Origin: a virus | Direction: 5' to 3' (one strand) | UHGV virus genome: UHGV-0324630 | Length of the DNA: 37,666 nt | Shown here: positions 4,925 through 36,790 of the stretch, one piece after another | Layout: every line of letters begins with the position of its first letter | Position numbering within the stretch: the stretch's first letter is position 1 | Made by a program: the position numbers and the translations under genes | The notes under the pieces: generated by a model | Seen by the model: the letters and a program-made list of their open reading frames with translations, nothing else | The model's database searches: none | What the model was told of the DNA's origin: nothing

Positions 4925-5187
4925 CCATTCTGGACTACATCGCTACTCATCCGGGGTGTAGCGGCGGAGAGATCGCCGCAGCACTGAATACCCCAACCAC
5001 AGCCATTAATGCTGAGTTACGCCGACTTTGGCGCGGCGGCTTAGTCATCAGAACAAACCGCAGCACAGGTGGTCGCGCTCGCAAAACAGGAGGCAAGGCT
5101 TCTTACCACGTAAACCCGATGCCGTTCGGGTGTAGCAATCCACTTACTCACATGTTTAACCAGCTACTGAAGGAAGCCAGAGCATGA
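4921..5187 (+). CDS. Small winged-helix-like DNA-binding protein (putative)
   Basis: 88-aa ORF; ILDYIATHPGCSGGEIAAALNTPTTAINAELRRLWRGGLVIR resembles a winged-helix recognition unit; ATGA coupling on both sides. Confidence 0.55.
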   Translation: MTILDYIATHPGCSGGEIAAALNTPTTAINAELRRLWRGGLVIRTNRSTGGRARKTGGKASYHVNPMPFGCSNPLTHMFNQLLKEARA

Positions 5188-5483
5188 GCACCATCAACCA
5201 CCAGAAGCTACGCGAACTGGCATTTGCCCTGCAACGAATGGCAACGCCTCAAAAATTACTGGCATTTCGCGCAATGCTCTCGCCGTCTGCTGTGCTGGCA
5301 CTGCTGGATCAGCTGGAGCACGCCAGAACCACGGCTCCAGCCATTCGCCTCACGCTCCATCATGAAATCGCTGATTTCTGCGCAACGCTGGGGGCACCTG
5401 GCGAACCGGAAACGCCGGAAGCAATGCAGCAAGAGCTGCTGCAACGCATCGATAACGTTTTTGATTTTTTTCTGAACCAGTAA
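5184..5483 (+). CDS. Hypothetical early protein
   Basis: 99-aa ORF, ATGA-coupled to the upstream gene. Confidence 0.55.
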   Translation: MSTINHQKLRELAFALQRMATPQKLLAFRAMLSPSAVLALLDQLEHARTTAPAIRLTLHHEIADFCATLGAPGEPETPEAMQQELLQRIDNVFDFFLNQ

Positions 5484-5605
5484 GAAACCAGAACATGCAC
5501 ACACAAAAAAACCGCTTGCCATGCCGCAATCGGTCAGGTTACATTTCCGCTGCACCTCATAAAACGGGTGCCGGGATTCTCAACCCGATACAGAGCAAAG
5601 CGCAT

Positions 5606-5626
5606 AACCGCGCTAGCGGTTTTTTT
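5606..5626 (+). terminator. Intrinsic terminator-like hairpin (AACCGC-gcta-GCGGTT followed by a T-run)
   Basis: GC-rich 6-bp stem, 4-nt loop, then about 7 T; 123 nt downstream of the stop at 5483. Confidence 0.5.
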
Positions 5627-5805
5627 GTGCGTACTGTATTGCCACGTCTTTTTCGCGTCAGAATTATGGCGGGGCGTACGGGGCCGACTTCGGTCGGGCC
5701 GGATTCTTTGCTCTCCGGTGTTGAGAACCCTGTACGTCTCGCCACCCCGAGATTCTCAACTCTGGATGGTGAGTTATTTCTATCACCGAGCAAAGAGGCC
5801 ACACC

Positions 5806-6036
5806 ATGGCAGACCGCAAACAGCACCGCGCTATCGCGGAGCGTCGTCACATCCAGACTGAAATCAACCGCAGACTTTCCCGCGCATCACGCGTCGCGCA
5901 AATCATGCACATCAATATGCTGCATGAGCGCAGCCACGCACTATCAAACATTTATTCCGCCTCTGTTTTCAGCTATCTGGCGGATGATCTGCACGAGTTT
6001 CAACAGCTCATCCAGCAGCAAAACAAACTCCATTAA
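5806..6036 (+). CDS. Hypothetical small basic protein upstream of the replication genes
   Basis: 76-aa ORF with AAGAGG RBS 7 nt upstream. Confidence 0.55.
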   Translation: MADRKQHRAIAERRHIQTEINRRLSRASRVAQIMHINMLHERSHALSNIYSASVFSYLADDLHEFQQLIQQQNKLH

Positions 6037-6108
6037 TTCCTGTTCCGGGCCTTTCCTGCACCTTGCGGCGGGAGGCCTTCGCACATCTGTAACAAGAGGA
6101 TTGCCGCA

Positions 6109-6474
6109 ATGATTCTCGCCAACGACTTTCTTGAATACCTGCTCAACACAGAACGTGATCTTGCCGCTCGCGTGCGTGATCGTTATGACATGTACCTGAA
6201 ATCCCTGCCTGTACCGCAGCTCGCTGACGGAAAGATTGTTATTGATGGTCGCTACATGATTGACAGCCACGAGGGAAATTACAGGCTTTACCGCATTGAA
6301 GGTGGCACCCCGACCGTTATTGGCATTTACCAGCGCCCATCCTCTGCAATCGTCGATGTGATTGCCGACAGCATCCGCATCACACATCGCCATGCCGACA
6401 CAGAAGACACCGTGCTGGAAATTCAGCGGCTGGCTACAGCCTGCCGCGACACCCTGAATGGCATGACGAAGTAA
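6109..6474 (+). CDS. Hypothetical protein preceding gpA
   Basis: 121-aa ORF with AGAGGA RBS. Confidence 0.6.
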   Translation: MILANDFLEYLLNTERDLAARVRDRYDMYLKSLPVPQLADGKIVIDGRYMIDSHEGNYRLYRIEGGTPTVIGIYQRPSSAIVDVIADSIRITHRHADTEDTVLEIQRLATACRDTLNGMTK

Positions 6475-6480
6475 ATCACT

Positions 6481-9303
6481 ATGACGGCAGAGTACATCAG
6501 GGACTGGCAACAACCGCGCCACGCAGTGGGGCGTGAAGGAACGGGGATCCCCGCTCCTGAATCTGCGCTTTCCTCCTGGCTGGATGCCTACCGGGCAGAG
6601 AACGAGCGCCGCCAGGAAATGGCTGATGCGGCGTTCTCCGCCACACCGCTGGGCAACCTGATTAATAAAAGCCTGGACGCACAGGAAAAACAGGACAAAG
6701 CCATCACACTGGCAGGAGACGCCAGAAAACAGGCACGCGGCGCGGTGGATGAAGCCATGGCCTCGCTGCGCCTGCTGCCGTCCTATTTGCGCGATCCACT
6801 TATTCGTCACCTCTCCTTCCTGCGCAAAAAACAGGAAGCCGATCGCCGGAAAGGCAAAAAGAGCTGGCAGGCAGAACGCTATGCACGCGGAACCCTGCGC
6901 AAGATATTCGATCGCATAAACCGCACCGACAGCCGCTGGCTGACACCGGGTTATCGCTCCCTTGCCGGACGCGAACGCCTGGACGATTTGCTTTACCTGC
7001 CGCAGCTCAACAAGCACCAGATACAGACGCTGGCTACCATGACGGCGGCGATGTTCAGCAGCACCTTCGAAAAACTCTGCGATGGTTTTGGCGCGACCGA
7101 TGGCGAGCTGACCATGGATGTAACCCTGAAGGCGTATCAGATGCTGGCCCGCATGGCGTTACACCTGCACGCCATGCCTCCACATTATGACGCACTGACA
7201 ACAGACAAAGACCGGAGGAACGAACCGGACACGGAGCTGCTGCCAGGCGCAATCCTTCGCCTGACCTGTGCGGAATGGTGGAAACGCAAACTGTGGCTGT
7301 TACGTTGTGAGTGGCGGGAAGAACAACTTCGCGCCGCCTGTCTGGTTTCCAGAAAAACATCGCCCTATCTGAGCCAGGACGCGTTAAGCGAGTTTCGCGC
7401 ACAGCGCGAGAAAACACGCGATTTCCTGAAAAGTTTCATGCTGGAAAACGAAGACGGGTTCACGATTGATCTCGAGACAGTGTATTACGCGGGAGTAAGT
7501 AACCCGGTTCACCGTAAGGCAGAAATGATGGCCACCATGAAGGGGCTGGAACTTCTGGCCGAAGCCCGTGGCGACAAAGCGGTGTTTCTGACTGTCACCT
7601 GCCCGTCAAAATACCACGCCACAACAGAGAACGGTCATCCGAATCCCAAATGGAACGGGGCCACCATGCGCGACTCCAGCGATTACCTGGTTAACACGTT
7701 TTTTGCGGCGGTCCGCAAGAAACTGAACCGCGACGGCCTGCGCTGGTATGGCATCCGCACGGTGGAGCCTCACCATGACGGCACCGTGCACTGGCATATG
7801 ATGGTCTTTGCTCATCCGGAAGAAATCGACACCATTGTGTCCCACACCCGTGATATTGCCATTCAGGAAGATCGTCACGAGCTGGGTGATGATATTACCC
7901 CACGCTTTAAGGCGGAGTACGTCGACGGCTCAAAAGGCACACCGACCAGCTACATCGCCACCTACATCGGGAAAAACCTGGACAGCCGTGCCGTGGATGG
8001 CATCGACCCGAAAACGGGCAAGCCACGCGTTGACCACGAAACCGGAAAATCAATGGCCGAGAGCGTGGAACGCGCCATCGGCTGGGCGCGCCTTCACCGG
8101 GTCCGCCAGTTCCAGTTTTTTGGTATCCCCTCCCGTCAGGTGTGGCGTGAGCTGCGTCGCCTTGCCAGCCAGATGGCACGCAACCCGGAAGGCCCACAAC
8201 GGCTGAAGGATGACGCAATGGATGCGGTTCTTGCTGCCGCTGATGCCGGATGTTTTGCCACCTACATAGAGAAACAGGGCGGCGTACTTGTTCCACGCAA
8301 GGACTACCTGGTTCGCACCGCCTACGACCTCGCAGATGAACTGAATGATTACGGCGAACAGAGCGTACAGATTTACGGGATCTGGTCACCACTCATCGGG
8401 GAATCCTCTCGTGTGTGCACGCATCCGGATAACTGGAAGCTGGTAAGACGTAAACCGGAAACGGAAGACAGCGCCCGCGAAAATGGTTTTGACCTTCAGG
8501 GCGGCCCTGCCGCCCCTTGGACTCGTGGCAATAACTGTCCCCGTGTACAGGAAACGGACAACAACGGGACAGAACAGCCGGAAGAACGGCCAGCACCGTG
8601 GCCGCAGCTCCCTGACGGCGTTGAAGTGAACGAATGGATGCGCTCACTGAAACGGCACGAACGCCGGGCGCTGATGCGTTCGCTTCGTGACAAACAGGCA
8701 AAAAACAGCAGTGATGAAATGCAGAGCTGGACACAGAGCCGCAAACAGCAGCGGCCTTTGCCTGATAACCACGAATTACTCGCTAAAGAATGGCGGGAGT
8801 CTGCTGAATCTCTCGGCCTGCATATCGGTGAACAACAGATGCAGCACCTGTTACGGGGCGGCAGTCTGTACGTTGACGGCAGCATCATTGCACCGCAGGG
8901 ATTTGAAATTATACGCAAACCGGATACCCGCCCGGACAGCCGAATCACGCAGCTCTGGCAGCGCCTGAGCCGTAATCACGGCGTAAGCAGCACGGAGATC
9001 CGCCATAACCCGGTCGCCAGCTATCTGGCACAGCTGGGGGCATCAGCCCCTGAAGCCGCCGCACGCCTGGCATCCACACTTCAGCAGGACCAGAACACCA
9101 TGAAAACACCCGTTACCGTGCTTTCTGACATGCTGCGCGCCATCCGCGACGCAGAGCACGCACAGAGAATCAGTGAAACCACTGAACGCGCCCGCCGCAA
9201 AGCAGACCTGCTGCGGGGTGGCCTGACCAGTGGAAACAATAAACAGACAGAAACGGGACTCACGAATCCCGTAAATGAGCAAAAAACGCGCAGCGATATA
9301 TGA
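6481..9303 (+). CDS. A: Rolling-circle replication initiation endonuclease (P2 gpA family), with a long C-terminal extension
   Basis: 940-aa ORF; HUH-type motif GTVHWHMMVFAHP and paired-tyrosine motif TSYIATYIGKN typical of P2 A-type Rep proteins. Longer than P2 gpA (about 760 aa by my memory). Confidence 0.9.
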   Translation: MTAEYIRDWQQPRHAVGREGTGIPAPESALSSWLDAYRAENERRQEMADAAFSATPLGNLINKSLDAQEKQDKAITLAGDARKQARGAVDEAMASLRLLPSYLRDPLIRHLSFLRKKQEADRRKGKKSWQAERYARGTLRKIFDRINRTDSRWLTPGYRSLAGRERLDDLLYLPQLNKHQIQTLATMTAAMFSSTFEKLCDGFGATDGELTMDVTLKAYQMLARMALHLHAMPPHYDALTTDKDRRNEPDTELLPGAILRLTCAEWWKRKLWLLRCEWREEQLRAACLVSRKTSPYLSQDALSEFRAQREKTRDFLKSFMLENEDGFTIDLETVYYAGVSNPVHRKAEMMATMKGLELLAEARGDKAVFLTVTCPSKYHATTENGHPNPKWNGATMRDSSDYLVNTFFAAVRKKLNRDGLRWYGIRTVEPHHDGTVHWHMMVFAHPEEIDTIVSHTRDIAIQEDRHELGDDITPRFKAEYVDGSKGTPTSYIATYIGKNLDSRAVDGIDPKTGKPRVDHETGKSMAESVERAIGWARLHRVRQFQFFGIPSRQVWRELRRLASQMARNPEGPQRLKDDAMDAVLAAADAGCFATYIEKQGGVLVPRKDYLVRTAYDLADELNDYGEQSVQIYGIWSPLIGESSRVCTHPDNWKLVRRKPETEDSARENGFDLQGGPAAPWTRGNNCPRVQETDNNGTEQPEERPAPWPQLPDGVEVNEWMRSLKRHERRALMRSLRDKQAKNSSDEMQSWTQSRKQQRPLPDNHELLAKEWRESAESLGLHIGEQQMQHLLRGGSLYVDGSIIAPQGFEIIRKPDTRPDSRITQLWQRLSRNHGVSSTEIRHNPVASYLAQLGASAPEAAARLASTLQQDQNTMKTPVTVLSDMLRAIRDAEHAQRISETTERARRKADLLRGGLTSGNNKQTETGLTNPVNEQKTRSDI

Positions 9304-9379: not shown

Positions 9380-10339
9380 ATGAAAATTTGTATCGACGAC
9401 GGCTCCACCAACATCAAGCTGGCATGGACTGAGAACGGCGAACGCCGCAACGCCATCAGCCCGAACAGCTTCAAGTCGGAATGGTCTGCGCCGTTCGGTG
9501 GCACGCAGCCCGCGAACTACATGCTTGATGGCGTGCGCTATGGTTTTGATCCTGTCAGCGATCGCTTTGTCCAGACGACCGACACGCAATACCAATACAG
9601 CGATGTGAATGTCATTGCCATTCATCACGCGCTGGTCAAATCAGGCATCACGCCACAGGAGGTGGATGTGGTTGTCACCCTGCCACTGAGCGAGTATTTC
9701 GACACAAACGCACAGCCGGACATGGCCAACATCAACCGCAAAAAAGCGAACGTTATGCGCCCGGTGGAGTACCAGAACGGCAAAGCATTCACTATCCGTA
9801 ACGTACGGGTTATGCCTGAATCTATTCCGGCTGGCTTTAAAGCACTGGCTGACATGAGTCCGTTTGAATCCCTGCTGATTGTGGATTTAGGCGGAACCAC
9901 GCTGGATGTGGCAAAGGTTCAGGGACAACTGGCAGGTATCAGCCAGGTGTTTTGCGATCCACACGTAGGCGTTTCCCTGATGGCCGATGCAGTACTGTCG
10001 GTGATGGCCACTAACGGTATGCGTACCAGTCACCACATCGCCAATACCATTATCGAACATCGCCATGATGAAGCTTGGCTGCGCCAGCACATCCACAATG
10101 ACGCGCATTACGCCAGCCTGATGGCGGTTATTCGTGAAAAGGAAGAAACACTGAAACAACGCGTGATCCGCGCGCTGGCGGGTTTTTCGGGTTACGGGCG
10201 GGTGATGGTTGTCGGTGGCGGAGCGGAGATTGTGGCACCCGCTATCCGCGAAGCCTGCGGGGTTAATGCGACTTTCATCGCGGACGGGGTGCCACAGTTT
10301 GCTCTGGTTAATGGGCTGTACGCAATGGACAAGGAGTAA
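9380..10339 (+). CDS. parM: ParM/StbA-family actin-like ATPase (type II partition NTPase)
   Basis: 319-aa ORF; N-terminus MKICIDDGSTNIKLAW...ISPNSFKSEW...YQYSDVNVIAIHHAL and later PESIPAGF, IVDLGGTTLD, FSGY..VMVVGGGAE align closely with my memory of plasmid R1 ParM (MLVFIDDGSTNIKLQW...ISPNSFKREW...). Confidence 0.9.
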   Translation: MKICIDDGSTNIKLAWTENGERRNAISPNSFKSEWSAPFGGTQPANYMLDGVRYGFDPVSDRFVQTTDTQYQYSDVNVIAIHHALVKSGITPQEVDVVVTLPLSEYFDTNAQPDMANINRKKANVMRPVEYQNGKAFTIRNVRVMPESIPAGFKALADMSPFESLLIVDLGGTTLDVAKVQGQLAGISQVFCDPHVGVSLMADAVLSVMATNGMRTSHHIANTIIEHRHDEAWLRQHIHNDAHYASLMAVIREKEETLKQRVIRALAGFSGYGRVMVVGGGAEIVAPAIREACGVNATFIADGVPQFALVNGLYAMDKE

Positions 10340-10343
10340 ACCA

Positions 10344-10655
10344 ATGACGACACCAACCAGACGGATAAGTTTCTATCTGAAGCCCGCCGCCGTCAAGAAC
10401 GAAGGCGAAGCATGCGCCTGGCTGGACAGCCTTACACCAGAAGCCCGTAAAAACGGCCAACGCGTGGCTTTTCTGGCCGGGCTGGCGCTTCTGAAAATGA
10501 ATCCGGCAGAGGCTTACCGACTGGCAGCATGGGCTGACGATGAGGCGTTATCAGTGACACAAACCAGGACAGAACGCCCCCTGTCACAGCCAGTACCAAC
10601 CGCACAGATAACCAGTCAGATGGCCGGAAATATCAGGGCGTTATTTCCTGAATAA
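10344..10655 (+). CDS. parR: ParR-like centromere-binding adaptor (RHH family)
   Basis: 103-aa ORF from ATG 10344 (AAGGAG RBS); RISFYLKPAAVKNEGEACAWLDSLTPEARKNGQRVAFLAGLALLKMNP and C-terminal IRALFPE resemble R1 ParR (IAFKLNPDV...DSIPQGERSRLNRAALTAGLALYRQDP, LRSLFPKE) from memory. The longer track ORF from 10209 overlaps parM and is probably not the true start. Confidence 0.8.
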   Translation: MTTPTRRISFYLKPAAVKNEGEACAWLDSLTPEARKNGQRVAFLAGLALLKMNPAEAYRLAAWADDEALSVTQTRTERPLSQPVPTAQITSQMAGNIRALFPE

Positions 10656-11192: not shown

Positions 11193-11723
11193 TTATTCAG
11201 CATCGTCTCGTGCAGTCTGTGCATACGTCACAACAACGCCCAATGCATTAGTTTTCTTTTCAACATAGATAATATTGTCATATTCATAGTTACCATACGG
11301 ATAGCAAATAAGAATATTTTTATGCAGTTCGGGATCATCAACAAACGCTCCGGAACAGCTTCTTGAACTACCAGATGTATACTCATACGGTGCAACATAT
11401 GATGATGTTACTCCTGGTAAAAAATAAGTCACCATCATAAGAGGGATAATCAGGAATATCCCTGTAAGAATGCAAGAGCCAGCATAAACCTTCAGGTATT
11501 CCGACAGTCCTTTCCAGCCACTTTGCTTCACTACCCCCCTCTTCACCAGAAACAAGGAGAAGAAAAAGGACATACCCATACTACACAAGATGTAATAATT
11601 GGATATACGCGAATTAAGATATGTAATCCTGTAGATATCTGCCCTCCACCAGTAAAAGAGGAAAATAATCCCTAGCACTGAAACAGTCATGCAAATCAAA
11701 TAAGGATATGAATCTTTCTTCAT
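11193..11723 (-). CDS. Integral membrane protein (about 4 TM helices plus a C-terminal soluble region), unknown function; AT-rich cargo gene at the position of the P2 tin/old accessory locus
   Basis: 176-aa ORF; hydrophobic segments LICMTVSVLGIIFLFYWW, YILCSMGMSFFFSLFLV, VYAGSCILTGIFLIIPLMMVTYFL; markedly AT-rich relative to the phage backbone. Confidence 0.65.
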   Translation of the reverse strand: MKKDSYPYLICMTVSVLGIIFLFYWWRADIYRITYLNSRISNYYILCSMGMSFFFSLFLVKRGVVKQSGWKGLSEYLKVYAGSCILTGIFLIIPLMMVTYFLPGVTSSYVAPYEYTSGSSRSCSGAFVDDPELHKNILICYPYGNYEYDNIIYVEKKTNALGVVVTYAQTARDDAE

Positions 11724-11795
11724 GTCTTGCGCTCATTAAAATTTCCCTGCTACGAACAAATTTACCATCCGTTTTTTGCGCAGAAAACAGCACGA

Positions 11796-11828
11796 TGCAC
11801 ACTGCACGATAGTGCACAAATTTGCACA
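11796..11828. repeat. Four helically phased TGCAC(A) repeats in the non-coding region between the cargo gene and portal gene (probable cos/packaging region)
   Basis: TGCAC at 11796, 11803, 11813, 11823, with a fifth at 11895; flanked by TTTTYTGCGC motifs at about 11773 and 11913. Confidence 0.3.
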
Positions 11829-12253
11829 ATTTTTTTGAACGACTTTTTACCCTTCCGCCCCGCATGGCGGCTGGATCCGTCAAGGATCCGTGCGTGCACA
11901 AAAAAAAGCGTTTTTTCTGCGCGCAGGTGACGGGGGAACAGCCCGCGTTTCAGGGGGTAAATAGCATTCCCTGAGCGATGTCGCAGCGACACAACAGAAT
12001 GGCTGTATTTCTCACGCTGAGCGTGAAAAAGACGTGAGGGCTTTTGATTTGATGGGGTAACAGATAAGGCCGCCAAAATCGCACTGAGGCGGCAGGAACA
12101 TGCAGTCAACGCGGTGGGATTGCGTAAGAGTCTGACCGTCGATGATGGCAATAAGCTGGAAGGCGTCGTGAAATTATCTGATTGATACAGGAGCTGGAGA
12201 GTCGGGGCATAAATTTTTTATGCCCCGGCGAAGCAGCAGACAAGCGAAGCGCG

Positions 12254-23466: not shown

Positions 23467-26124
23467 ATGAGCACGAAATTTAAAACCGTTATCACTACTG
23501 CCGGAGCCGCGAAGCTGGCAGCCGCCACTGTCCCCGGCGGGAAAAAAGTAACTCTGTCTGCAATGGCCGTGGGTGACGGTAATGGCAAATTGCCGGTGCC
23601 GGATGCCGGTCAGACGAAACTGGTGCATGAGGTCTGGCGTCACGCTCTGAATAAAGTCAGCGTGGATAACAAGAATAAAAACTATATCGTGGCTGAACTG
23701 GTTGTACCGCCAGAAGTGGGCGGCTTCTGGATGCGTGAGCTGGGTCTGTATGACGATGCCGGAACACTGATTGCGGTCGCTAACATGGCGGAAAGCTATA
23801 AACCTGAACTCGCTGAAGGCTCCGGGCGCGCGCAGACCTGCCGCATGGTTATTATTGTCAGCAACGTGGCGTCCGTTGAGCTGAGTATTGATGCCAGCAC
23901 AGTGATGGCGACGCAGGATTACGTCGATGACAAAATCGCAGAGCATGAGCAATCCCGCCGCCATCCTGACGCCACGCTGACAGAAAAAGGTTTTACTCAG
24001 TTAAGTAGCGCAACAAACAGCACCAGTGAAGAGCTGGCGGCAACGCCAAAGGCAGTAAAAGCAGCCTATGACAATGCTGAAAAACGTATGCAGAAAGACC
24101 AGAACGGTGACGATATTCCAGATAAGGGCGCTTTTCTGGACAATGTTGGCGTTACCAGCCTGACGTTTATGAAAAACAATGGCGAAATGCCGCTTGATGC
24201 TGACTTGAATACATTTGGTCCCGTTAAGGCTTATCTTGGCATCTGGTCTAAAGCAACATCCACCAACGCAACACTGGAGAAAAATTTCCCGGAAGATAAT
24301 GCTGTCGGTGTGCTTGAGGTTTTTGCAGCTGGCAATTTTGCAGGCACGCAACGTTTTATCACGAGAGACGGCAATGTATACATGCGTAAACTCGCCAATA
24401 AGTGGAATGGCACTGATGGTCCGTGGGGCGTATGGCGTCACACTCAATCAGCTACCCGCCCTTTGAGTACGACTATAGACCTGAATACGCTTGGAGCCGC
24501 TGAGCATCTTGGTTTATGGCGTAACAGTAGCTCGGCTATAGCTTCATATGAACGCAATTATCCAGAGGAAGGCGGCTTTGCTCAGGGGACGCTTGAGATC
24601 CTCGAAGGCGGGAATTATGGAAGAACGCAACGTTATACCACTCGTCGTGGGAATATGTACGTTCGCTGCCTTGCGGCAAGCTGGGATGCATCAAATCCGC
24701 AGTGGGAACCGTGGTTAAGAGTCGGTCATCAGTCAGAGAGCCGTTATTACGAAGGTGATTTGAATGTTCTAACCGACCCCGGTATTTACAGTGTTACAGG
24801 AAAGGCGACAAACGGTCCGATGCTGGACGCTGCTGGGGCGACATTGCTTGGGATACTGGAAGTAATCAGGCGTTTTGATGGTGTATCTGTCTGGCAGCGT
24901 TACACAACCACAGGAAAATCAGAAACCACACAGGGGCGCACTTTTGAGCGCGTCTACGCCGGGAGCACATGGACCGAATGGCGAGAAGTGTATAACTCCT
25001 TTTCGTTGCCCCTGAATATGGGGATCGGTGGCGCAGTGGCAAAACTCACCAGCCTGGACTGGCAGACCTACGATTTTGTGCCGGGCAGTCTGATAACCGT
25101 TCGGCTTGATAACATGACCAATATTCCCGACGGTATGGACTGGGGCGTCATTGATGGCAACCTGATAAACATCGCTGTTGGTCCGAGTGATGATTCCGGT
25201 ACGGGGCGCTCAATGCATGTATGGCGCAGCACTGTAAGTAAAGCGAATTACCGCTTTTTTATGGTTCGCATTTCAGGAAATCCGGGAAGCCGCACGATTA
25301 CGACAAGACGTGTGCCAATTATCGACGAAGCTCAGACATGGGCGGCGAAACAGACATTCAGCGGTGGTCTTTCTGGCGAACTATCCGGCAATGCTGCTAC
25401 AGCAACAAAGCTGAAAACGGCAAGGACAATTAACGGCGTAAAATTTGACGGCTCGGCAAATATTGAAGCGTTTCCGCCAGGTGTTCCGCTGCCGTGGCCA
25501 TCAGATACTGTGCCGTCTGGTTACGCCCTGATGCAGGGACAGACTTTTGATAAATCTGCATACCCGAAACTTGCAGTCGCTTATCCGTCAGGCGTGATCC
25601 CGGATATGCGTGGCTGGACAATCAAGGGCAAACCCGCCAGTGGTCGGGCCGTATTGTCTCTGGAACAGGACGGCATTAAATCGCACACCCACAGTGCCAG
25701 CGCATCCAGTACGGATTTGGGTACGAAAACCACATCGTCGTTTGATTACGGTACTAAATCAACGAATAACACAGGTGCACATACCCACAATGTATCTGGT
25801 ACTGCAAATAGTGCTGGCGCACATACTCATACCGTTCCATTAAGGAGACCAAACAGTGGCGGTATGAATTTCGACTGGCTGGATGGTGCATCAAGTGGCA
25901 CGGTGGTGGGGAATGGAACTGTGCCTTCTTCTGGCGCACATACCCACTCAGTATCAGGTACCGCTACAAGTGCTGGGGCACATGCACACACTGTTGGTAT
26001 TGGCGCTCATACGCACTCTGTTGCGATTGGTTCACATGGACACACCATCACCGTTAACGCTGCTGGTAACGCGGAAAACACCGTTAAAAACATCGCATTT
26101 AATTATATTGTGAGGCTTGCATAA
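23467..26124 (+). CDS. H: Tail fibre protein, P2 gpH-like N-terminus with a divergent C-terminal receptor-binding region carrying His-rich GAHTH repeats
   Basis: 885-aa ORF; conserved N-terminus [40 protein letters not shown]; C-terminal repeats [22 protein letters not shown] / [40 protein letters not shown]. Confidence 0.88.
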
Positions 26125-26741
26125 TGGCATTCAGAATGAGTGAACAATCACGTACTGTAAAAATTTATAACCTGCTGGCCGGAACTAATGAGTTTATTGG
26201 TGAAGGTGACGCATATATTCCACCTCATACAGGGCTGCCAGCCAATTCTACAGATATCGCCCCACCGGAAATTCCTGCTGGCTTTGTGGCAGTTTTTAAC
26301 AGTGAAAATGAATCGTGGAATATTGTTGAAGACCATCGTGGTAAAACGGTCTATGACGTGGCATCGGGGGACGCGTTGTTTATTTCTGAACCCGGACCGC
26401 TACCAGAGAATGTCACCTGGTTGTCGCCAGCAGGGGAGTATCAGAAGTGGGACGGCGTATCCTGGGTGAAGGATGAGGAAGCAGAAAAACTGTTTCGGAT
26501 ACGGGAAGCGGAAGAGAAAAAGGCAAGGTTGATCCAGGAAGCAACAGATAACATCGCAATTCTGCAGGATGCAGTTAATCTTGAAATAGCAACAAACGAG
26601 GAAAATTCACAACTGGATTCCTGGAGAAAATACAGAGTATTAGTGAGTAGAATTGACACCAGTACAGCTCCGGATATCGTATGGCCAGAGCTGATGAATC
26701 AGGGTTATGTGCGGGAGGACGAGCAGATAACTTCAGACTGA
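26124..26741 (+). CDS. G: Tail fibre assembly chaperone (Tfa/gpG-like)
   Basis: 205-aa ORF, ATG overlaps the H stop (TAATG); sits directly after the fibre gene. Confidence 0.8.
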
Positions 26742-27268
26742 AATTTAGTGATGAATGTTGAATCATCTGGAATATCATGCAATACCAATGCATGAGCACC
26801 TATTGTGACATTGTTTCCTATACGCACTTTGCCACCAAGAATGGTGGCATTACAACCAATGGTCACATTATGTCCTATAACAATATCCATATCATTAAAA
26901 TCACCACGCAGCCCAATAGTTACCCCTGGTTTTATTGAACAATTTTCACCGATTGTTACTTTGTGACCGATAACAACACTGTTGAGATAAGAAATATCAA
27001 AGCCTTTCCCTATATTTACAGTTAAAGGGACTGTTACATTATATTTATCAAGAATGAAACGTTCTATTTTCCCCGCAATCTTCCGACAGTATCCGCCTTT
27101 ATCAAAAAGGTATTTGGCTATGCGCCACCAAAATAAATAACGAACTCTTCTATGTTTTATTGCGCGAACAATTGCCTTTCGCCAGGAGAAAGGACGCTCG
27201 CTACCGATTACTTCATAGTGAATACAATCTTTAAGTTCATTAATATTCATATCTCTATTATTCAGCAT
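26705..27268 (-). CDS. Hexapeptide-repeat (left-handed beta-helix) acyl/acetyltransferase; AT-rich cargo gene at the position of the P2 Z/fun locus
   Basis: 187-aa ORF; tandem hexapeptide repeats [21 protein letters not shown]...[34 protein letters not shown] typical of LacA/Maa/WbbJ-type transferases; convergent with and overlapping the tfa 3' end. Confidence 0.8.
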
Positions 27269-27391
27269 AAGATAATCATGTGACCAATTATTGTAATAAT
27301 TTTAATGGTATGTTTCTACTGGCTATCCAGCGTGTCTGATGTCCAGTAACAAATCGTTAACACTGGTGCAATCAAATGGTGAGTGTTAAGA

Positions 27392-27431
27392 CTGGCCACT
27401 TATTACCAGGTATGAGGGTATGAGTGGCCAG
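27392..27431 (-). terminator. Stem-loop (9-bp stem CTGGCCACT/AGTGGCCAG) immediately downstream of gpU on the minus strand; no clear U-tract
   Basis: Perfect 9-bp inverted repeat with about 22-nt loop, read directly. Confidence 0.3.
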
Positions 27432-27438
27432 CATTAAA

Positions 27439-27933
27439 TCAGAACAGCCCTTTAACTGAACTGGCCGCGCTGTTAAGGGATGATGTCACTTTATCTTTGA
27501 AGCCGGACAGCATATCGCTGAACGATGAGGATTGCAGGCGCTCCCGCAAATCCTCATCACAGCGTTCAAGGGTCAGTGAAAATTCTATCTTTTTCGCCTT
27601 ACCGTAGCGATCAAACTCGGAACGGGTCGTATTCGTTTCGGTCAGGACATACATGCCGTAAATCTGCCCGACGCCATCAATAAGAGGCCAGGGGCGTCCT
27701 GTATACGCCTGCGTGGTCAGCAGCGACAGCGACACTTCGCCACCTGTAATTTCAGGATAAAGCACACCAGAAAGAACGATGCGATCATCACCTGCACCGA
27801 TATACTGCCAGCTTGCTGAACGGTTAACGCGTTCATTTTTCACATGCCGCCAGCTTTTGTTTTGCTGTAACTGCTGATGCGGCAGCGTGCGCAGCTCAAA
27901 AACAAACATGCCGTAGATCATCATCATGGCCAT
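27439..27933 (-). CDS. U: Tail protein U, P2 gpU-like
   Basis: MAMMMIYGMFVFELRTLPHQQLQQNKSWRH...VLYPEITGG...WPLIDGVGQIYGMYVLTE resembles P2 gpU from memory. Confidence 0.85.
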   Translation of the reverse strand: MAMMMIYGMFVFELRTLPHQQLQQNKSWRHVKNERVNRSASWQYIGAGDDRIVLSGVLYPEITGGEVSLSLLTTQAYTGRPWPLIDGVGQIYGMYVLTETNTTRSEFDRYGKAKKIEFSLTLERCDEDLRERLQSSSFSDMLSGFKDKVTSSLNSAASSVKGLF

Positions 27934-27939
27934 GACTCC

Positions 27940-30783
27940 TCAATCTTTATCGTAAAAACTGCCACGCCCGGCACGGGCGCGCCGTTCCATTTCTGCCCTG
28001 ACCATTTCACCGACCAGTTTCGCCAGTTCGCGGGGATTCTGCGTAACAACGTTATGCAGATGAACATGAATTTCACCACCAAATCCGGAGGCAACAGGCT
28101 CCCGGTTACGGGAAGTTACAGGAACTGATGCCACTGGAGATCGTATGGCCTCCGCCACCGGGCGGGAGCTGGCCGCAACAACAGGGACCAGCGCCGGAGG
28201 CAGCGGAGCCGGGACCACGGGTGTGATATTAATTGCGGGGGCAGGCTTACTGACCTGCGCAATCTTCCGCTCCTGCCACTCTCCACGAACAGCAAGTGCG
28301 CGGGGCAGGTTCTTAAAGACAATATCGCCGGGGCCAATGCGTTTTTTCGTCTCATCAACCAGCTTACCTGTGTTATCAGCAATTTTGCTGAGTCTGCGTA
28401 GCGTCCCGGTATTGCTGTCTGTGAGCGGTTTGTTGTCTTTGGGTTTATTACCTCCGGTGCCATTGCCATTTTCCACAGGCTTCGGCGGATTGATTTTCGC
28501 CAGGTCACCCTGAAGCAAGGCAACCTTGTCCTGAAGAATGGCCGCACGCTGTGCGTCTTCGATTTTCTTGCGCGCTCTTTCCGCTTCATCCGGAAGGACG
28601 CCAAGTTTTTCAAGTATCCACGCCAGCGTATCCAGTAGCATTTTTGCAGGTGTCAGAACAAGCTGTAACGCACCGCCAAGAACGTTACCGAATATCTCGC
28701 CAGCACTGGTACATTTATCCAGCGTTTCCTTGCTGGACTCCATCGGTGACAGCAGCGATTTAAACCAGTTAAACACCTGGCTGATCCCGCTTCCGATTGT
28801 GTCAAAAACAGGACCAAACCGTTCAAAGGTTTCGCGCAACGGGGTCAGCCTTTCCATAATCCCGCTGAACACCCCGGCAAAAAATGCCCTGATGGGATCC
28901 CAGTATTTCCAGATAAGAACGGCAGCTCCGGCAAGCGCAGCCACGATAAGACCAACCGGACTGAACAGCGCCCCGATAGCGCCTCCCAGTAAAGAAACGG
29001 AACCCGTCACCATTCCCCACAGCGCAGGCAACACCCTGACGACATTCATTGACCGGGTAAGAATGTCAAAACCAAGACGCAGGGTGGCCAGCTTCCCGTA
29101 AAGCACCCCAATAACCAGCGACAACGAGCCAATCGTTGCAGTCATTGCCAGCAACGCACCGCCTGCTATCAGTAGCTGGCGCGTCAGTACCGGATGGGCC
29201 TGCGCCAGCGAGGTGATTTTTTCAAGCACCCGCGTGAGCCACTGCGTGACAGAACGCAGCGGACCGTCAACCAGATCACTGATGCGAATACGAAGACCTT
29301 CCCATGCGCTGTCGAGATTTTTCAGGTCCCCATCAAGATTATCGGCCATTACTTTTGCGACGCGATCGGCCTCTCCCCTTGCCCCCTGCAATTCTCTGGT
29401 CAGTTTTTGCAGCTCTCCTGAACCAGCCGCCGCAACAAGCGTCTGCAAACCAACGAACGCCTCTTCTCCGGCGATGTCCTTGAAGAAGGAAACCTGGTCC
29501 ACCTGTCCGTATTTTTGTGTCGCCTTATAGAGATCAAGCAGCACATCCTCCATCGGGCGCATTTTGCCTCTGGCGTCAGCAACTGACACCCCCAGCTCTT
29601 TCAGTGCATCAGCCGCAGCTTTTGGCGGTGATGCAAGGCGGGACAGACTTGCGCGCATGGCCGTACCAGCATCGCTTCCGCGAAGACCATTATTGGCAAG
29701 CATCCCGGCCATGGCTGCCGCTTCTTCAAGACTGATACCAAGTTTTGCGGCAACCGGACCGGTATACTTCATGGTTTCGCCCAGCGCGCGTAAATCAGTA
29801 TTGGTCCGGGTGAATGCTGCTGTCAGCGTATCGCCAACACGGTCCATTTGATCGGCTGTCAGGTTGAACTGTGTGAGGATATTGGAGCCTATATCAGCCG
29901 TCTCGCCGAGTTCGACGCCACCTGCCAGCGCCATATTAAGAACACCGGGCAATGCGGCCTGAATGGCCTGCGGAGTAAAACCAGCCATTGCCAGAAAGCT
30001 CTGCCCACTGGCGGCATCACTCGCAGTAAACTGTGTTTCAGAGCCAAGTTTTAACGCCTGCTCACGCAGCGCCTTAAACTGCGGGCTGTTTTTGTCGATT
30101 CGCGTCAGTGCCTGAACACGGGACATCTCTTTGCCGAACCCGATCGCAGGCTGCAAAAAACGCCCGGCAGCATAGCCGCCCGCCGTTGCCGCACCAATTG
30201 CCAGCGCACCACCTGTTTTCAGTTTTCCCGCTGTTTCCTGCGCGCGCGAATACCGCTCACGCGCCCGTGTTACACGCGCAAGCGCCTGCCGTTCGCGTTC
30301 AAGCTGGTTGTTGTACTGTTCGGTGCGTCTGATGGCCTGCTGGATGGTGTTATCGCTGCCTGTCAGGGAAATGCCGTGGCGTTTCAGCTCTCCGCCAAGC
30401 TCCCGCATTTTCTGAATTTCCCGTGTGCGCGATTCATTCAGGCGTTCAAGCCGGGTGCTTAACTGCTGCATCAGCTTTTGTTGTTTTTCGCTGAGCACTG
30501 TACCCGTGCGTTGTAACTGATTAAGGGCGTTAAGCTGGCGTCGTGCTTTCAATATGCCAGCATCCGCTTTACTGACAGCGTCACGGGCGCGCTCAAATGA
30601 ACGCGCCTGACGCTCGAGATTTTTGATCGCCCCCTGCGTTCGCTGGATGGAGTCACCAAACTGCCCCATCAGGCGGCGGGCGTTTTCGGCAGGCCGGGTC
30701 AGCCTGTCAACGGCGCTGAAAGCGACCCGGATGTCAAGAGTCTTCATTGTCTGCATTCCCGCTGCGAAGTGCCGCCCGCTCAC
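27940..30783 (-). CDS. T: Tail tape measure protein, P2 gpT-like
   Basis: 947-aa ORF; long coiled-coil N-terminal half, Gly/Ala-rich hydrophobic central segments, position between E/E' and U. Confidence 0.88.
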   Translation of the reverse strand: MSGRHFAAGMQTMKTLDIRVAFSAVDRLTRPAENARRLMGQFGDSIQRTQGAIKNLERQARSFERARDAVSKADAGILKARRQLNALNQLQRTGTVLSEKQQKLMQQLSTRLERLNESRTREIQKMRELGGELKRHGISLTGSDNTIQQAIRRTEQYNNQLERERQALARVTRARERYSRAQETAGKLKTGGALAIGAATAGGYAAGRFLQPAIGFGKEMSRVQALTRIDKNSPQFKALREQALKLGSETQFTASDAASGQSFLAMAGFTPQAIQAALPGVLNMALAGGVELGETADIGSNILTQFNLTADQMDRVGDTLTAAFTRTNTDLRALGETMKYTGPVAAKLGISLEEAAAMAGMLANNGLRGSDAGTAMRASLSRLASPPKAAADALKELGVSVADARGKMRPMEDVLLDLYKATQKYGQVDQVSFFKDIAGEEAFVGLQTLVAAAGSGELQKLTRELQGARGEADRVAKVMADNLDGDLKNLDSAWEGLRIRISDLVDGPLRSVTQWLTRVLEKITSLAQAHPVLTRQLLIAGGALLAMTATIGSLSLVIGVLYGKLATLRLGFDILTRSMNVVRVLPALWGMVTGSVSLLGGAIGALFSPVGLIVAALAGAAVLIWKYWDPIRAFFAGVFSGIMERLTPLRETFERFGPVFDTIGSGISQVFNWFKSLLSPMESSKETLDKCTSAGEIFGNVLGGALQLVLTPAKMLLDTLAWILEKLGVLPDEAERARKKIEDAQRAAILQDKVALLQGDLAKINPPKPVENGNGTGGNKPKDNKPLTDSNTGTLRRLSKIADNTGKLVDETKKRIGPGDIVFKNLPRALAVRGEWQERKIAQVSKPAPAINITPVVPAPLPPALVPVVAASSRPVAEAIRSPVASVPVTSRNREPVASGFGGEIHVHLHNVVTQNPRELAKLVGEMVRAEMERRARAGRGSFYDKD

Positions 30784-34680: not shown

Positions 34681-35820
34681 GTGGGAAACAATAAAGTGAA
34701 ATTAGGAAGAAATGATAAGTGCTGGTGTAATTCAGGACTTAAGTATAAAAAGTGCCATCTTGGTCGAGACCGTGAAACTCCGGTATCCAAAGCCGAGGCA
34801 CTGAAATTTTCAAAGTCTCTCTCGCAGAGAAAGGCATGTTATGCGCCAGCATCCATGCACGAAGATTGTGATAAACGCATCGTTCAGGCGCATACGATAT
34901 CTAAGAGCAGTAGCCTTAAGGCGATCGCCGACTCCAGCAATCACGTCATGGGGGTGATAATGAACTTAGCAAGCCTGATGAGAAACAACGGAAAATGGCT
35001 TCCCGAGAAGATCGGTATCAATCAGGCATCCACTTTTACAGGATTTTGTGCAGTTCATGACAGAATCTTGTTTTCATGCCTAGAGAACGAAAAATTTACA
35101 GGCACGGACGAGCAGTGCTTTGCCTTAATGTTTCGTTCATTGTCTAAAGAAATTTACGCCAAAGAAGGGGGAGTGCTATCTTCCGATTTTGCTAAAAATG
35201 CCGATAAAGGAAAGCTACAAGTTGAACAGTATTATATTCAGAAATTAATCGACCAGCACCAAAGTGGCTTAAATGCAGCAATAATTGAATTAAATAATCT
35301 TAAAACTAGCCTCGACCGCATCCTACTTAGCAGGCAATTTTCAGAAATTGAAAGTGTTATCTTCACTTTTGCAGAGCCTTTACCAATTGTAGTTTCGTCA
35401 ATTCTTTCACCGGAGAGGGATTTCGATGGGACCAAAATTCAGGATTTGAGCGATCTTACAGTGTCGGCGGAACAAGTATGTTTCAATGCTTTTTCCTGCG
35501 GAGGTAAGGGATATGTAGTGTTCAGTTGGCTGAGAACTTCAACAATTATCAGACGTTTTATACGGACACTAATTAAGATCCCGGCTAACAGGATGTTCAA
35601 TACCCTTCTGTATTTTTTCTTCACAAAGGCCGAAAATACATATTCATCCCCTGAGTGGTGGGACAGGCTCAGTGATAAACAGCGAGAGAATATCGGCAAC
35701 ATGATTATGTCAGGGGTTGAATTTTTTGGCAGACCTACATCACAGGTTGATCATTCCGTTGATTATAACGCCGCTGCACTTGAAGAGATAACATGCAGCA
35801 ACAACGAAATTTGCAGCTGA
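34681..35820 (+). CDS. Uncharacterised protein with N-terminal SEC-C-like zinc-binding motif (C-W-C-x8-C-H); AT-rich cargo gene inserted between gpD and ogr
   Basis: 379-aa ORF (GTG start, start uncertain; alternative GTG at 34696); N-terminal KCWCNSGLKYKKCH; rest unrecognised; strongly AT-rich with about 400 bp and about 290 bp non-coding flanks. Confidence 0.65.
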   Translation: MGNNKVKLGRNDKCWCNSGLKYKKCHLGRDRETPVSKAEALKFSKSLSQRKACYAPASMHEDCDKRIVQAHTISKSSSLKAIADSSNHVMGVIMNLASLMRNNGKWLPEKIGINQASTFTGFCAVHDRILFSCLENEKFTGTDEQCFALMFRSLSKEIYAKEGGVLSSDFAKNADKGKLQVEQYYIQKLIDQHQSGLNAAIIELNNLKTSLDRILLSRQFSEIESVIFTFAEPLPIVVSSILSPERDFDGTKIQDLSDLTVSAEQVCFNAFSCGGKGYVVFSWLRTSTIIRRFIRTLIKIPANRMFNTLLYFFFTKAENTYSSPEWWDRLSDKQRENIGNMIMSGVEFFGRPTSQVDHSVDYNAAALEEITCSNNEICS

Positions 35821-36370: not shown

Positions 36371-36561
36371 CAGGCAGAATTGCCGGAGTAACAAAAAAAC
36401 GATAGATTACCCGCGGGTGCCTTTCGGCTGATGGTCGGAGGGAATACCCGAAGGCCGGATGTGGAAAGGCCCCGGAAAACATTTCTGTTTAACCGAGGCC
36501 CTAACATATCTACCTTAAGCAAGTGATAGGTTAGCGCCTCTCCAACAAAGGAGCAAGCGCT

Positions 36562-36702
36562 ATGTCGCAAAAATCGCTTACGGCCATCACGTTCTGCGTG
36601 ACGGTAATCCTCATCATCTGGATGCTACACGGTTCGCTGTGTGAAATACGGATGAGCTTCTGGGGAGCGGAGTTTGCGGCGTTCTTACAGTGTAAGCAGT
36701 AA
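36562..36702 (+). CDS. Hok/Gef-family type I toxin (small membrane toxin)
   Basis: 46-aa ORF with AAAGGAG RBS: MSQKSLTAITFCVTVILIIWMLHGSLCEIRMSFWGAEFAAFLQCKQ; N-terminal TM helix then the SLCEIR motif characteristic of Hok/SrnB/PndA; not in the ORF track (below 60 aa). Confidence 0.8.
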   Translation: MSQKSLTAITFCVTVILIIWMLHGSLCEIRMSFWGAEFAAFLQCKQ

Positions 36703-36790
36703 GGAAACCGCGACGGGGGAGCAATCCCCCGTCAATCGGTTGCTAAGGTTGGCTGAAGTGGCACCCTATCTCACAGACATGAACAACAAA

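Follow-up and report, generated by a model that had tools for sequence, protein, structure and literature searches.

The window considered here is UHGV virus genome UHGV-0324630, a stretch of 37,666 nucleotides (nt) identified as a P88-type (Xuanwuvirus, P2-like) prophage of Escherichia coli, and the gene in question is an acetyltransferase-like gene on the minus strand between the tail-fibre genes and the tail operon. The 851 nt from 26600 to 27450 match E. coli strain 631 at 100%, and in that strain the prophage is located between yecA and the tRNA-Leu/Cys/Gly cluster. The gene is convergent with the fibre chaperone gene tfa and, as a first-pass annotation of the sequence had described, overlaps its 3' end; the overlap measures 37 nt (26705-26741), and the last 12 codons of the gene are antisense to tfa. 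The same-strand upstream neighbour is the gene for gpU, which is 99% identical to that of P88. The interval 26705-27438 given in the first-pass annotation comprises the gene and the upstream spacer up to the gpU stop codon. The features of the locus are as follows.

23467..26124, plus strand: tail-fibre gene H, with a gpH-like N-terminus (Pfam Phage_tail_fib, Phage_fiber_2 and Collar).
26124..26741, plus strand: tail-fibre assembly (chaperone) gene tfa (Pfam Caudo_TAP, E 1.6e-39).
26705..27250, minus strand: acetyltransferase-like coding sequence of 181 amino acids (aa), from the list of open reading frames (ORFs), with Pfam Hexapep; RefSeq start at M7.
27251..27268, minus strand: six-codon 5' extension of the 187-aa ORF; its ATG at 27268 is TTA in the lambdoid and yfhH-site variants.
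27290..27318, minus strand: putative sigma-70-type promoter, TAGAAA-17 nt-TACAAT, from a promoter scan, conserved in six aligned copies.
27325..27438, no strand: backbone-specific spacer at the junction of the cassette and the P88-type tail operon, from the upstream alignment.
27439..27933, minus strand: gene for the tail protein gpU, with which the inverted tail operon ends (Pfam Phage_P2_GpU, E 5.5e-39).
27445..27463, minus strand: terminator-like hairpin and T-rich tail at the gpU stop codon, from a consensus scan (weak evidence).
27940-30783, minus strand: tape-measure gene of the inverted tail operon.

The mechanical ORF runs over 26705..27268 on the minus strand and encodes 187 aa. Translation most likely begins at the second ATG, at 27250, for a protein of 181 aa, because this start is used in RefSeq WP_001447286.1 and because the ATG at 27268 is missing from variants that are 85-86% identical. 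The upstream ATG is located about 15 nt from the predicted transcription start and lacks a Shine-Dalgarno sequence; the second ATG and an AGAG-type ribosome-binding region are conserved in the 85-86% identical copies, and the extension at 27251..27268 is probably not translated. The 187-aa ORF matches PHROG 2154 ('unknown function') with an E-value of 4e-79. The first-pass description of an AT-rich accessory segment was borne out: the GC content of the whole window is 0.516, whereas that of the coding sequence is 0.374 and that of the spacer of 188 nt upstream is 0.372; at third codon positions of the gene it is 0.29, against 0.57 in the neighbouring gpU gene.

The promoter block begins about 75 nt upstream of the start codon and is common to six copies from five phage backbones, the -10 element being a perfect TATAAT in the P1-like and lambdoid copies. 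Upstream of about 27325 the sequence differs between backbones in the alignment of the six copies; similarity to the P1-like copies stops at window position 27338, and similarity to P88 resumes at 27434. The element at 27290..27318 would serve as the transferase gene's own promoter, and the hairpin at 27445..27463 may shield the transferase gene from the late tail operon. The gene runs opposite to the late fibre operon and displays the features of a moron, namely a conserved promoter-like site, a deviant GC content and variable presence among related phages. It is best explained as a self-contained moron, horizontally acquired as cargo.

Pairwise dN/dS (nonsynonymous to synonymous substitution rate) values among six copies ranged from 0.06 to 0.19, with dS up to 0.7, and from 0.06 to 0.13 among the pairs with dS of at least 0.12, so that the transferase gene is under strong purifying selection. 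By megablast, 185 of 5,426 complete E. coli genomes (~3%) contain the 851-nt segment, at 160 chromosomal and 59 plasmid places. This presence, together with the purifying selection, identifies a real gene rather than a chance ORF. The copy in H50 is broken by IS1; the other copies inspected are annotated as intact. The hosts of the cassette belong to many serotypes, e.g., O6:H16, O121:H19 and porcine enterotoxigenic E. coli (ETEC), and include Shiga toxin-producing E. coli (STEC) strains.

The cassette, which consists of the 3' end of tfa, the gene and the promoter, was found in at least five phage backbones: in P88-type prophages; in 47-kb RepA phage-plasmids; in P1-like elements, namely phage-plasmids and one integrated element, in which it stands ahead of the holin/darA genes in place of the S'U' arm and cin; at the bio locus in a lambdoid prophage, where it follows J-lom-stf-tfa; and in another myovirus prophage near yfhH. 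The 3' portion of tfa (about 26522-26741) travels with the transferase gene, and every cassette copy reaches back at least to 26600. In plasmid pECO-b75 (6840-6932 of the locus) and in phage vB_EcoM-613R2 the cassette carries a 93-nt fragment of the 3' end of gpU. The continued attachment of this fragment suggests that the cassette of the RepA phage-plasmids was captured from a P88-type phage. The adjoining fibre gene is itself a mosaic, with an N-terminal part of the P2 gpH/collar type and a tip, from about 25492, of the lambdoid Stf type. The segment 25492-26521, i.e., the fibre tip and the first two thirds of tfa, has 84-90% DNA identity to side-fibre loci of the stfR/tfaR/tfaQ type, which occur in 4,013 of the 5,426 genomes; the likeness to the widespread TfaR/TfaQ genes ends at window position 26521.

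The site between tfa and gpU varies among related phages. In P88, 500465-2 and Shae_phiSM it holds an inverted alternative fibre/chaperone arm and a DNA invertase, without the transferase gene, and in PhiR44_2 it is empty. The contents of the locus thus vary, and the cassette has either taken the place of an invertible fibre switch or been added to one. The lambdoid and yfhH-site copies retain the C-terminal 35-40 codons of a Cin/Gin-type invertase beside the promoter, upstream of the gene (tblastn). No such remnant was detected in the window by tblastn with the Cin and P88 invertases, and AAACCNNGGTTT, a core motif of gix/cix-type sites with which a residual crossover site was sought, had 0 matches in the window when up to 1 mismatch was allowed. 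In E. coli TOK-001, restriction-type genes abut gpU in a remnant of a P88-type prophage, so the gpU side of the tail operon can also border defence-type cargo. The TOK-001 DNA at this point carries genes for a truncated type I restriction R subunit, an M48 peptidase, a DUF262 protein and a PD-(D/E)XK nuclease.

The locus had been equated with that of the accessory gene Z/fun of P2, and this holds for position but not for homology. P2 fun(Z) is likewise located directly downstream of the fibre chaperone gene (G in P2, tfa here), on the opposite strand and convergent with it, and both genes are non-essential cargo. However, homology of the two proteins (528 aa versus 181 aa) was rejected, the best BLASTP E-value being 7.6. 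Moreover, the other neighbour is here gpU and not FI, since the tail operon is inverted in this phage genus, in which the site normally holds an invertible fibre arm and an invertase.

The protein was confirmed as a left-handed-beta-helix (hexapeptide) acyltransferase by Pfam Hexapep (E 1.1e-12, 47.5 bits versus a cut-off of 27), whose tandem imperfect repeats have the form [LIV]-[GAED]-X2-[STAV]-X. Enzymes of this superfamily are homotrimers that bind acyl-CoA between neighbouring chains and carry the catalytic histidine on an interface loop. The narrower description as LacA/Maa/WbbJ-like had to be abandoned. In a search with curated profiles the best matches were EpsC (E 9.5e-23, 80.7 bits, below its cut-off), CysE (1.6e-19) and WcaB (3.8e-17), with WbbJ (3e-10), LacA (1e-7) and Maa (3e-7) much weaker and far below their own cut-offs (39.8 bits versus 243, 31.6 versus 347, and 30.5 versus 314, respectively). 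The WcaB profiles also missed their cut-offs (NF007564, 62.2 bits versus 196; TIGR04016, 59.8 versus 194.65), as did TIGR01172 for serine acetyltransferase (70.5 versus 210.65) and NF008349 for full-length CysE (44.2 versus 397). WcaB is the colanic-acid acetyltransferase, and EpsC, to judge by its name, is a serine-acetyltransferase-like enzyme of exopolysaccharide (EPS) loci.

The AlphaFold2 (AF2) model of the protein has a predicted local distance difference test score (pLDDT) of 88 and a predicted template-modelling score (pTM) of 0.82. It consists of four helices at residues 9-75, followed by beta-helix strands from residue 77. Foldseek matched it to beta-helix enzymes at probability 1.00, with CysE serine acetyltransferases at the top (template-modelling score ~0.7), and the closest chains in the PDB by sequence are also serine acetyltransferases (E 6e-12). 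By sequence and predicted fold the protein is assigned to the class of CysE/EpsC/WcaB beta-helix transferases. It has in common with this class the predicted helical N-domain followed by a beta-helix, an invariant FWWR-type arginine and the IGKG...IGxN turns, and differs in scoring below all curated cut-offs, in being phage-borne and in having tyrosine in place of the catalytic histidine. Members of the class occur in polysaccharide clusters. In a database-wide search the protein falls in a tight enterobacterial clade with at least 41% identity, after which the scores drop sharply to 'serine acetyltransferase'-like proteins of about 185 aa. One non-phage relative, P0038, which is 37% identical over the aligned 71% of the query, is encoded in a polysaccharide cluster between glycosyltransferase genes (GT2, GT4, GT11) and CMP-sugar genes; it is the single non-phage relative whose genomic context was checked for a link to glycan clusters. 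Inspection of the protein sequence revealed no signal peptide or membrane segment, and the protein is therefore regarded as cytoplasmic.

At the active site the protein departs from CysE. In HMMER alignments with three CysE structures the column of His158 is occupied by tyrosine (Y94 of the 187-aa ORF, Y88 of the 181-aa protein) and that of Asp143 by threonine, and the serine-binding stretch Arg192-His193 is aligned to an unrelated Asn-Asp-Met-Asp; these positions follow E. coli CysE numbering. Y88 aligns to the 'DH' of the CysE motif LDHATG. CysE has an N-terminal helical domain of about 140 aa and a C-terminal CysK-binding tail (...GDGI) that ends in Ile. The N-terminal helices of the phage protein span only about 70 aa, and its C-terminus reads ...ICSSSRT.

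Convergence with tfa recurs among diverged homologues (34-54% identity), namely those of Hafnia phage yong2, Citrobacter phiNP and the P1-like JL22. In JL22 the homologue (37% identical, annotated 'sacF') is part of the invertible C segment, which is intact there; it is flanked by the two convergent chaperone genes, adjoins cin, and is inverted together with the segment relative to the remaining genome. Forty diverged loci from IMG/VR were grouped into 22 clusters at 85% identity. Ten of these clusters have the gene convergent with tfa, 4 have it beside other putative fibre or baseplate genes (one by a Gp10_C domain, the rest by position alone), 1 has it beside a tape-measure gene, and at least 3 have it adjoining integrases; the remainder are in other contexts. 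The homologue of ESSI2_ev015 likewise adjoins int, and in the 987-group phages of Streptococcus thermophilus the homologue follows the tail structural gene located ahead of the lysis genes. The family adjoins at least five unrelated types of fibre tip. The ends of fibre modules and sites beside integrases are classical sites of lysogenic-conversion genes.

A homologue was also seen outside recognizable phage sequence. In Enterobacteriaceae bacterium BIT-l23 a 52% identical protein, P0015, is encoded by the first of three tandem hexapeptide-repeat genes (locus 5001-6697), in a non-phage-looking part of the chromosome beside a gene for an OprD-family porin.

Two kinds of phage-borne acetylase offer a comparison. 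NeuO, the prophage-encoded beta-helix O-acetyltransferase of CUS-3, modifies the polysialic acid capsule of E. coli K1 (PMC3046976) and was reported to raise resistance to phage and to neutrophil killing (PMC13001214). Like the protein described here, it is prophage accessory cargo and a cytoplasmic left-handed-beta-helix acyl-CoA (coenzyme A) transferase. Unlike it, NeuO has a catalytic His/Trp pair and its gene a phase-variable 5' heptanucleotide repeat (PMC3046976), whereas the window protein has tyrosine at the histidine position, is CysE-like with an N-terminal helical domain, is encoded by a gene without the repeat and is not confined to K1 strains. No polysialate acetyltransferase chain, such as would link the protein to NeuO/OatWY, occurred among the 53 PDB sequences matched at E ≤ 0.001. 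A neuO-like phase-variation repeat was not found in 26600-27500, where the sole tandem repeat is one of 16 nt, in 2 copies, at 27409-27424, upstream of the promoter. The second kind comprises O-antigen acetylases of the membrane acyltransferase-3 (AT3) type from temperate phages, such as Sf6 Oac and p24 of Serratia phage BZS1, cargo for which acetylation of surface glycans and a block to superinfection have been proposed or demonstrated. The BZS1 acetylase gene has the opposite orientation beside the tail-fibre genes, as here, and was proposed to act in O-antigen conversion (PMC7556043). The AT3 acetylases are, however, an integral-membrane family acting on the periplasmic side, whereas the window protein is predicted to be a soluble cytoplasmic beta-helix protein. 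By analogy, the transferase would thus parallel NeuO of CUS-3 in mechanism and the BZS1 acetylase by position. In Klebsiella, 5-30% of the prophages per K-locus encode putative acetyltransferases, and prophage-driven sugar modification was suggested (PMC13123978).

Both roles put forward in the first-pass annotation, acetylation of the surface and a defence function, are plausible; genome context and family relationships favour surface-glycan modification as the function of the gene. In the reading preferred here, to which a probability of about 0.5 is given, a cytoplasmic acyl-CoA-dependent transferase modifies an envelope glycan in lysogens. The gene would be transcribed in the lysogen from its own sigma-70-type promoter, independently of the late operons, and its product would acylate a sugar of the glycan, with acetyl or another short acyl group, while the glycan is being built at the cytoplasmic face of the inner membrane. 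The acceptor may be an undecaprenyl-linked O-unit, an intermediate of the enterobacterial common antigen (ECA), of colanic acid, of a capsule or of the lipopolysaccharide (LPS) core, or a nucleotide-sugar. The outcome would be an altered cell surface, that is, lysogenic conversion with masking of the receptor against other phages and possibly an altered antigenicity. Catalytic activity, substrate and phenotype are presumed ones, and the first-pass annotation was right that the substrate cannot be read from the sequence.

Several observations weigh against this reading or narrow it. Among 113 aligned homologues the column of the catalytic histidine, the general base of this enzyme class, holds 95 His, 14 Tyr and 4 Asn; the 14 with tyrosine are the window protein and the 13 sequences closest to it, which extend to about 53% identity and include Hafnia phage yong2, and histidine is kept by each of the 38 diverged viral homologues from IMG/VR. 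With tyrosine at this position, O-acetyl transfer by the usual mechanism is not assured. The promoter is a match to the consensus and nothing more, the scan returned no intrinsic terminator downstream of the transferase gene, and the fold of 26560-26720 is no better than that of shuffled sequence (z -1.2). The divergence of the transferase does not co-vary with that of the chaperone (Spearman rho 0.00, Mantel p 0.49) or of the fibre tip (rho 0.08, Mantel p 0.43), and nothing indicates that the receptor of the phage's own fibre in particular is modified. Since the hosts span many serotypes, a serotype-specific O-antigen is an unlikely target. In the full-text literature no functional study of the gene or its homologues was found; the authors of the JL22 paper state that the reason for the homologue's presence 'is still unknown' (PMC9603915), and the phiNP homologue is listed as a 'fitness' cargo gene in the paper on Citrobacter rodentium prophages (PMC6456863).

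Co-evolution of the transferase with the chaperone or the fibre tip, as expected of an enzyme that modifies its own fibre's receptor, was accordingly rejected. Because the gene tracks neither, its link is to position, at an end of the fibre module or of the prophage, and not to receptor specificity. For the surface-glycan reading, a specific O-antigen is a less plausible target than a conserved one, for which the LPS core, ECA, colanic acid and a common nucleotide-sugar are candidates.

The tyrosine clade also admits another reading, which is doubtful but deserves some weight: the protein may have a changed chemistry or none, acting as an N-acyltransferase on an amino sugar, or as a pseudo-enzyme that sequesters a precursor or disturbs a host glycan pathway. 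The confinement of tyrosine to the 14 closest sequences, the histidine of the other viral homologues and the further differences from CysE at the equivalents of Asp143 and Arg192-His193 all point this way, and the tyrosine form is evidently functional, because it is under strong purifying selection. The beta-helix N-acetyltransferases WlbB, QdtC and AntD work without a catalytic base. Against this, conservation of the beta-helix is otherwise good and extends to the Gly/Asn-rich turns that border the CoA groove in homologues, which fits a working enzyme, and the tyrosine could itself serve as the base. That the clade has gained a new chemistry, such as base-independent N-acylation of an amino sugar, or a non-catalytic role in which ligand sequestration reprograms a conserved envelope pathway in lysogens, is similarly a speculative proposal, with the odds clearly against it.

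Rather less probable is a role inside the cell in defence, counter-defence or detoxification, in which the protein would acetylate a small molecule, a nucleotide or a compound resembling an antibiotic. The beta-helix detoxifying enzymes Vat, CatB and LacA/Maa match the protein, though weakly (E 1e-5 to 1e-7), the variable sites of P2-like phages are reservoirs of antiviral genes (PMC9122126), and the TOK-001 relative has restriction-type genes at the same site beside gpU. However, 0 families of the PADLOC defence-system models matched the transferase protein at E ≤ 1, EpsC, CysE and WcaB are closer to it than the detoxifying classes, and the non-phage relative P0038 belongs to a polysaccharide cluster. 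Acetyltransferases also go unmentioned in two papers on P2 hotspots (PMC9122126 being one of them).

A virion-linked role, in which the protein modifies the tail fibre or its chaperone or helps in fibre assembly, would explain the adjacency to tfa, and this adjacency does persist across diverged homologues. It is nevertheless very improbable: the gene is opposite to the late operon and has a sigma-70-type promoter-like site of its own, other homologues are located beside integrases and far from fibre genes, no co-variation with the chaperone or the fibre tip was detected, and close relatives such as PhiR44_2 lack the gene. No beta-helix transferase is known to us to act on a protein of the virion.

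A genuine serine O-acetyltransferase, i.e., an auxiliary metabolic gene raising O-acetylserine and cysteine synthesis, is scarcely credible and was rejected on the curated cut-offs, the active-site residues, the short N-domain and the C-terminal tail, although RefSeq/GenBank records name the gene 'serine acetyltransferase' and CysE enzymes are its best PDB matches by sequence and fold; on these comparisons the database label is misleading.

Other accessory genes were noted elsewhere in the window. At 9380-10655, between replication gene A and the portal gene, are genes for ParM (StbA_N/ParM_N, E 1e-82) and a partitioning/stability protein; this is the old/tin variable hotspot of P2, where a partition system of this type is reported for about one in four P2-like phages (PMC9122126). 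Decay of part of the variable region is evident at 11193-12151, where the RefSeq annotation has an ead/Ea22-like pseudogene and a hypothetical gene with a frameshift. Two small genes at 1213-2240 (216 aa without a Pfam match, and 115 aa with DUF2511) are located between an HTH (helix-turn-helix) repressor-like gene and the integrase gene, on the same strand as both, and have no PADLOC match; the interval between repressor and integrase is a typical place for exclusion or conversion genes expressed in the lysogen. Between gpD and ogr, at 34681-35820, is a gene for an accessory protein of 379 aa with an N-terminal SEC-C motif (RefSeq 'YecA family protein'), which gave weak PADLOC matches through this motif (E 3e-5), and the prophage is integrated beside the host yecA. 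A hok/gef-family toxin gene is located at about 36500-36750, downstream of ogr near the prophage end (RefSeq, in the identical prophage of strain 631).

The gene is thus an uncharacterised phage-borne, putatively glycan-modifying transferase carried as a moron, and cargo of that kind is already known. Two features set it apart: it recurs at the end of the fibre module in phages of many types, and it has tyrosine at the position of the catalytic histidine. The latter poses a simple question on catalysis in beta-helix transferases. If the protein proves an ordinary sugar O-acetylase, it would be one more case of a well-known strategy; a changed chemistry or a sequestration, if true, would be a mechanism of lysogenic conversion not yet described for E. 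coli phages. The cassette is carried in ETEC and STEC strains and in P1-like or 47-kb phage-plasmids, under a mistaken name in the databases. If a common envelope glycan is modified, the gene would be an unrecognised determinant of phage susceptibility and antigenicity that spreads with tail-fibre cassettes, and it would bear on the prediction of host range in phage therapy and on serotyping.

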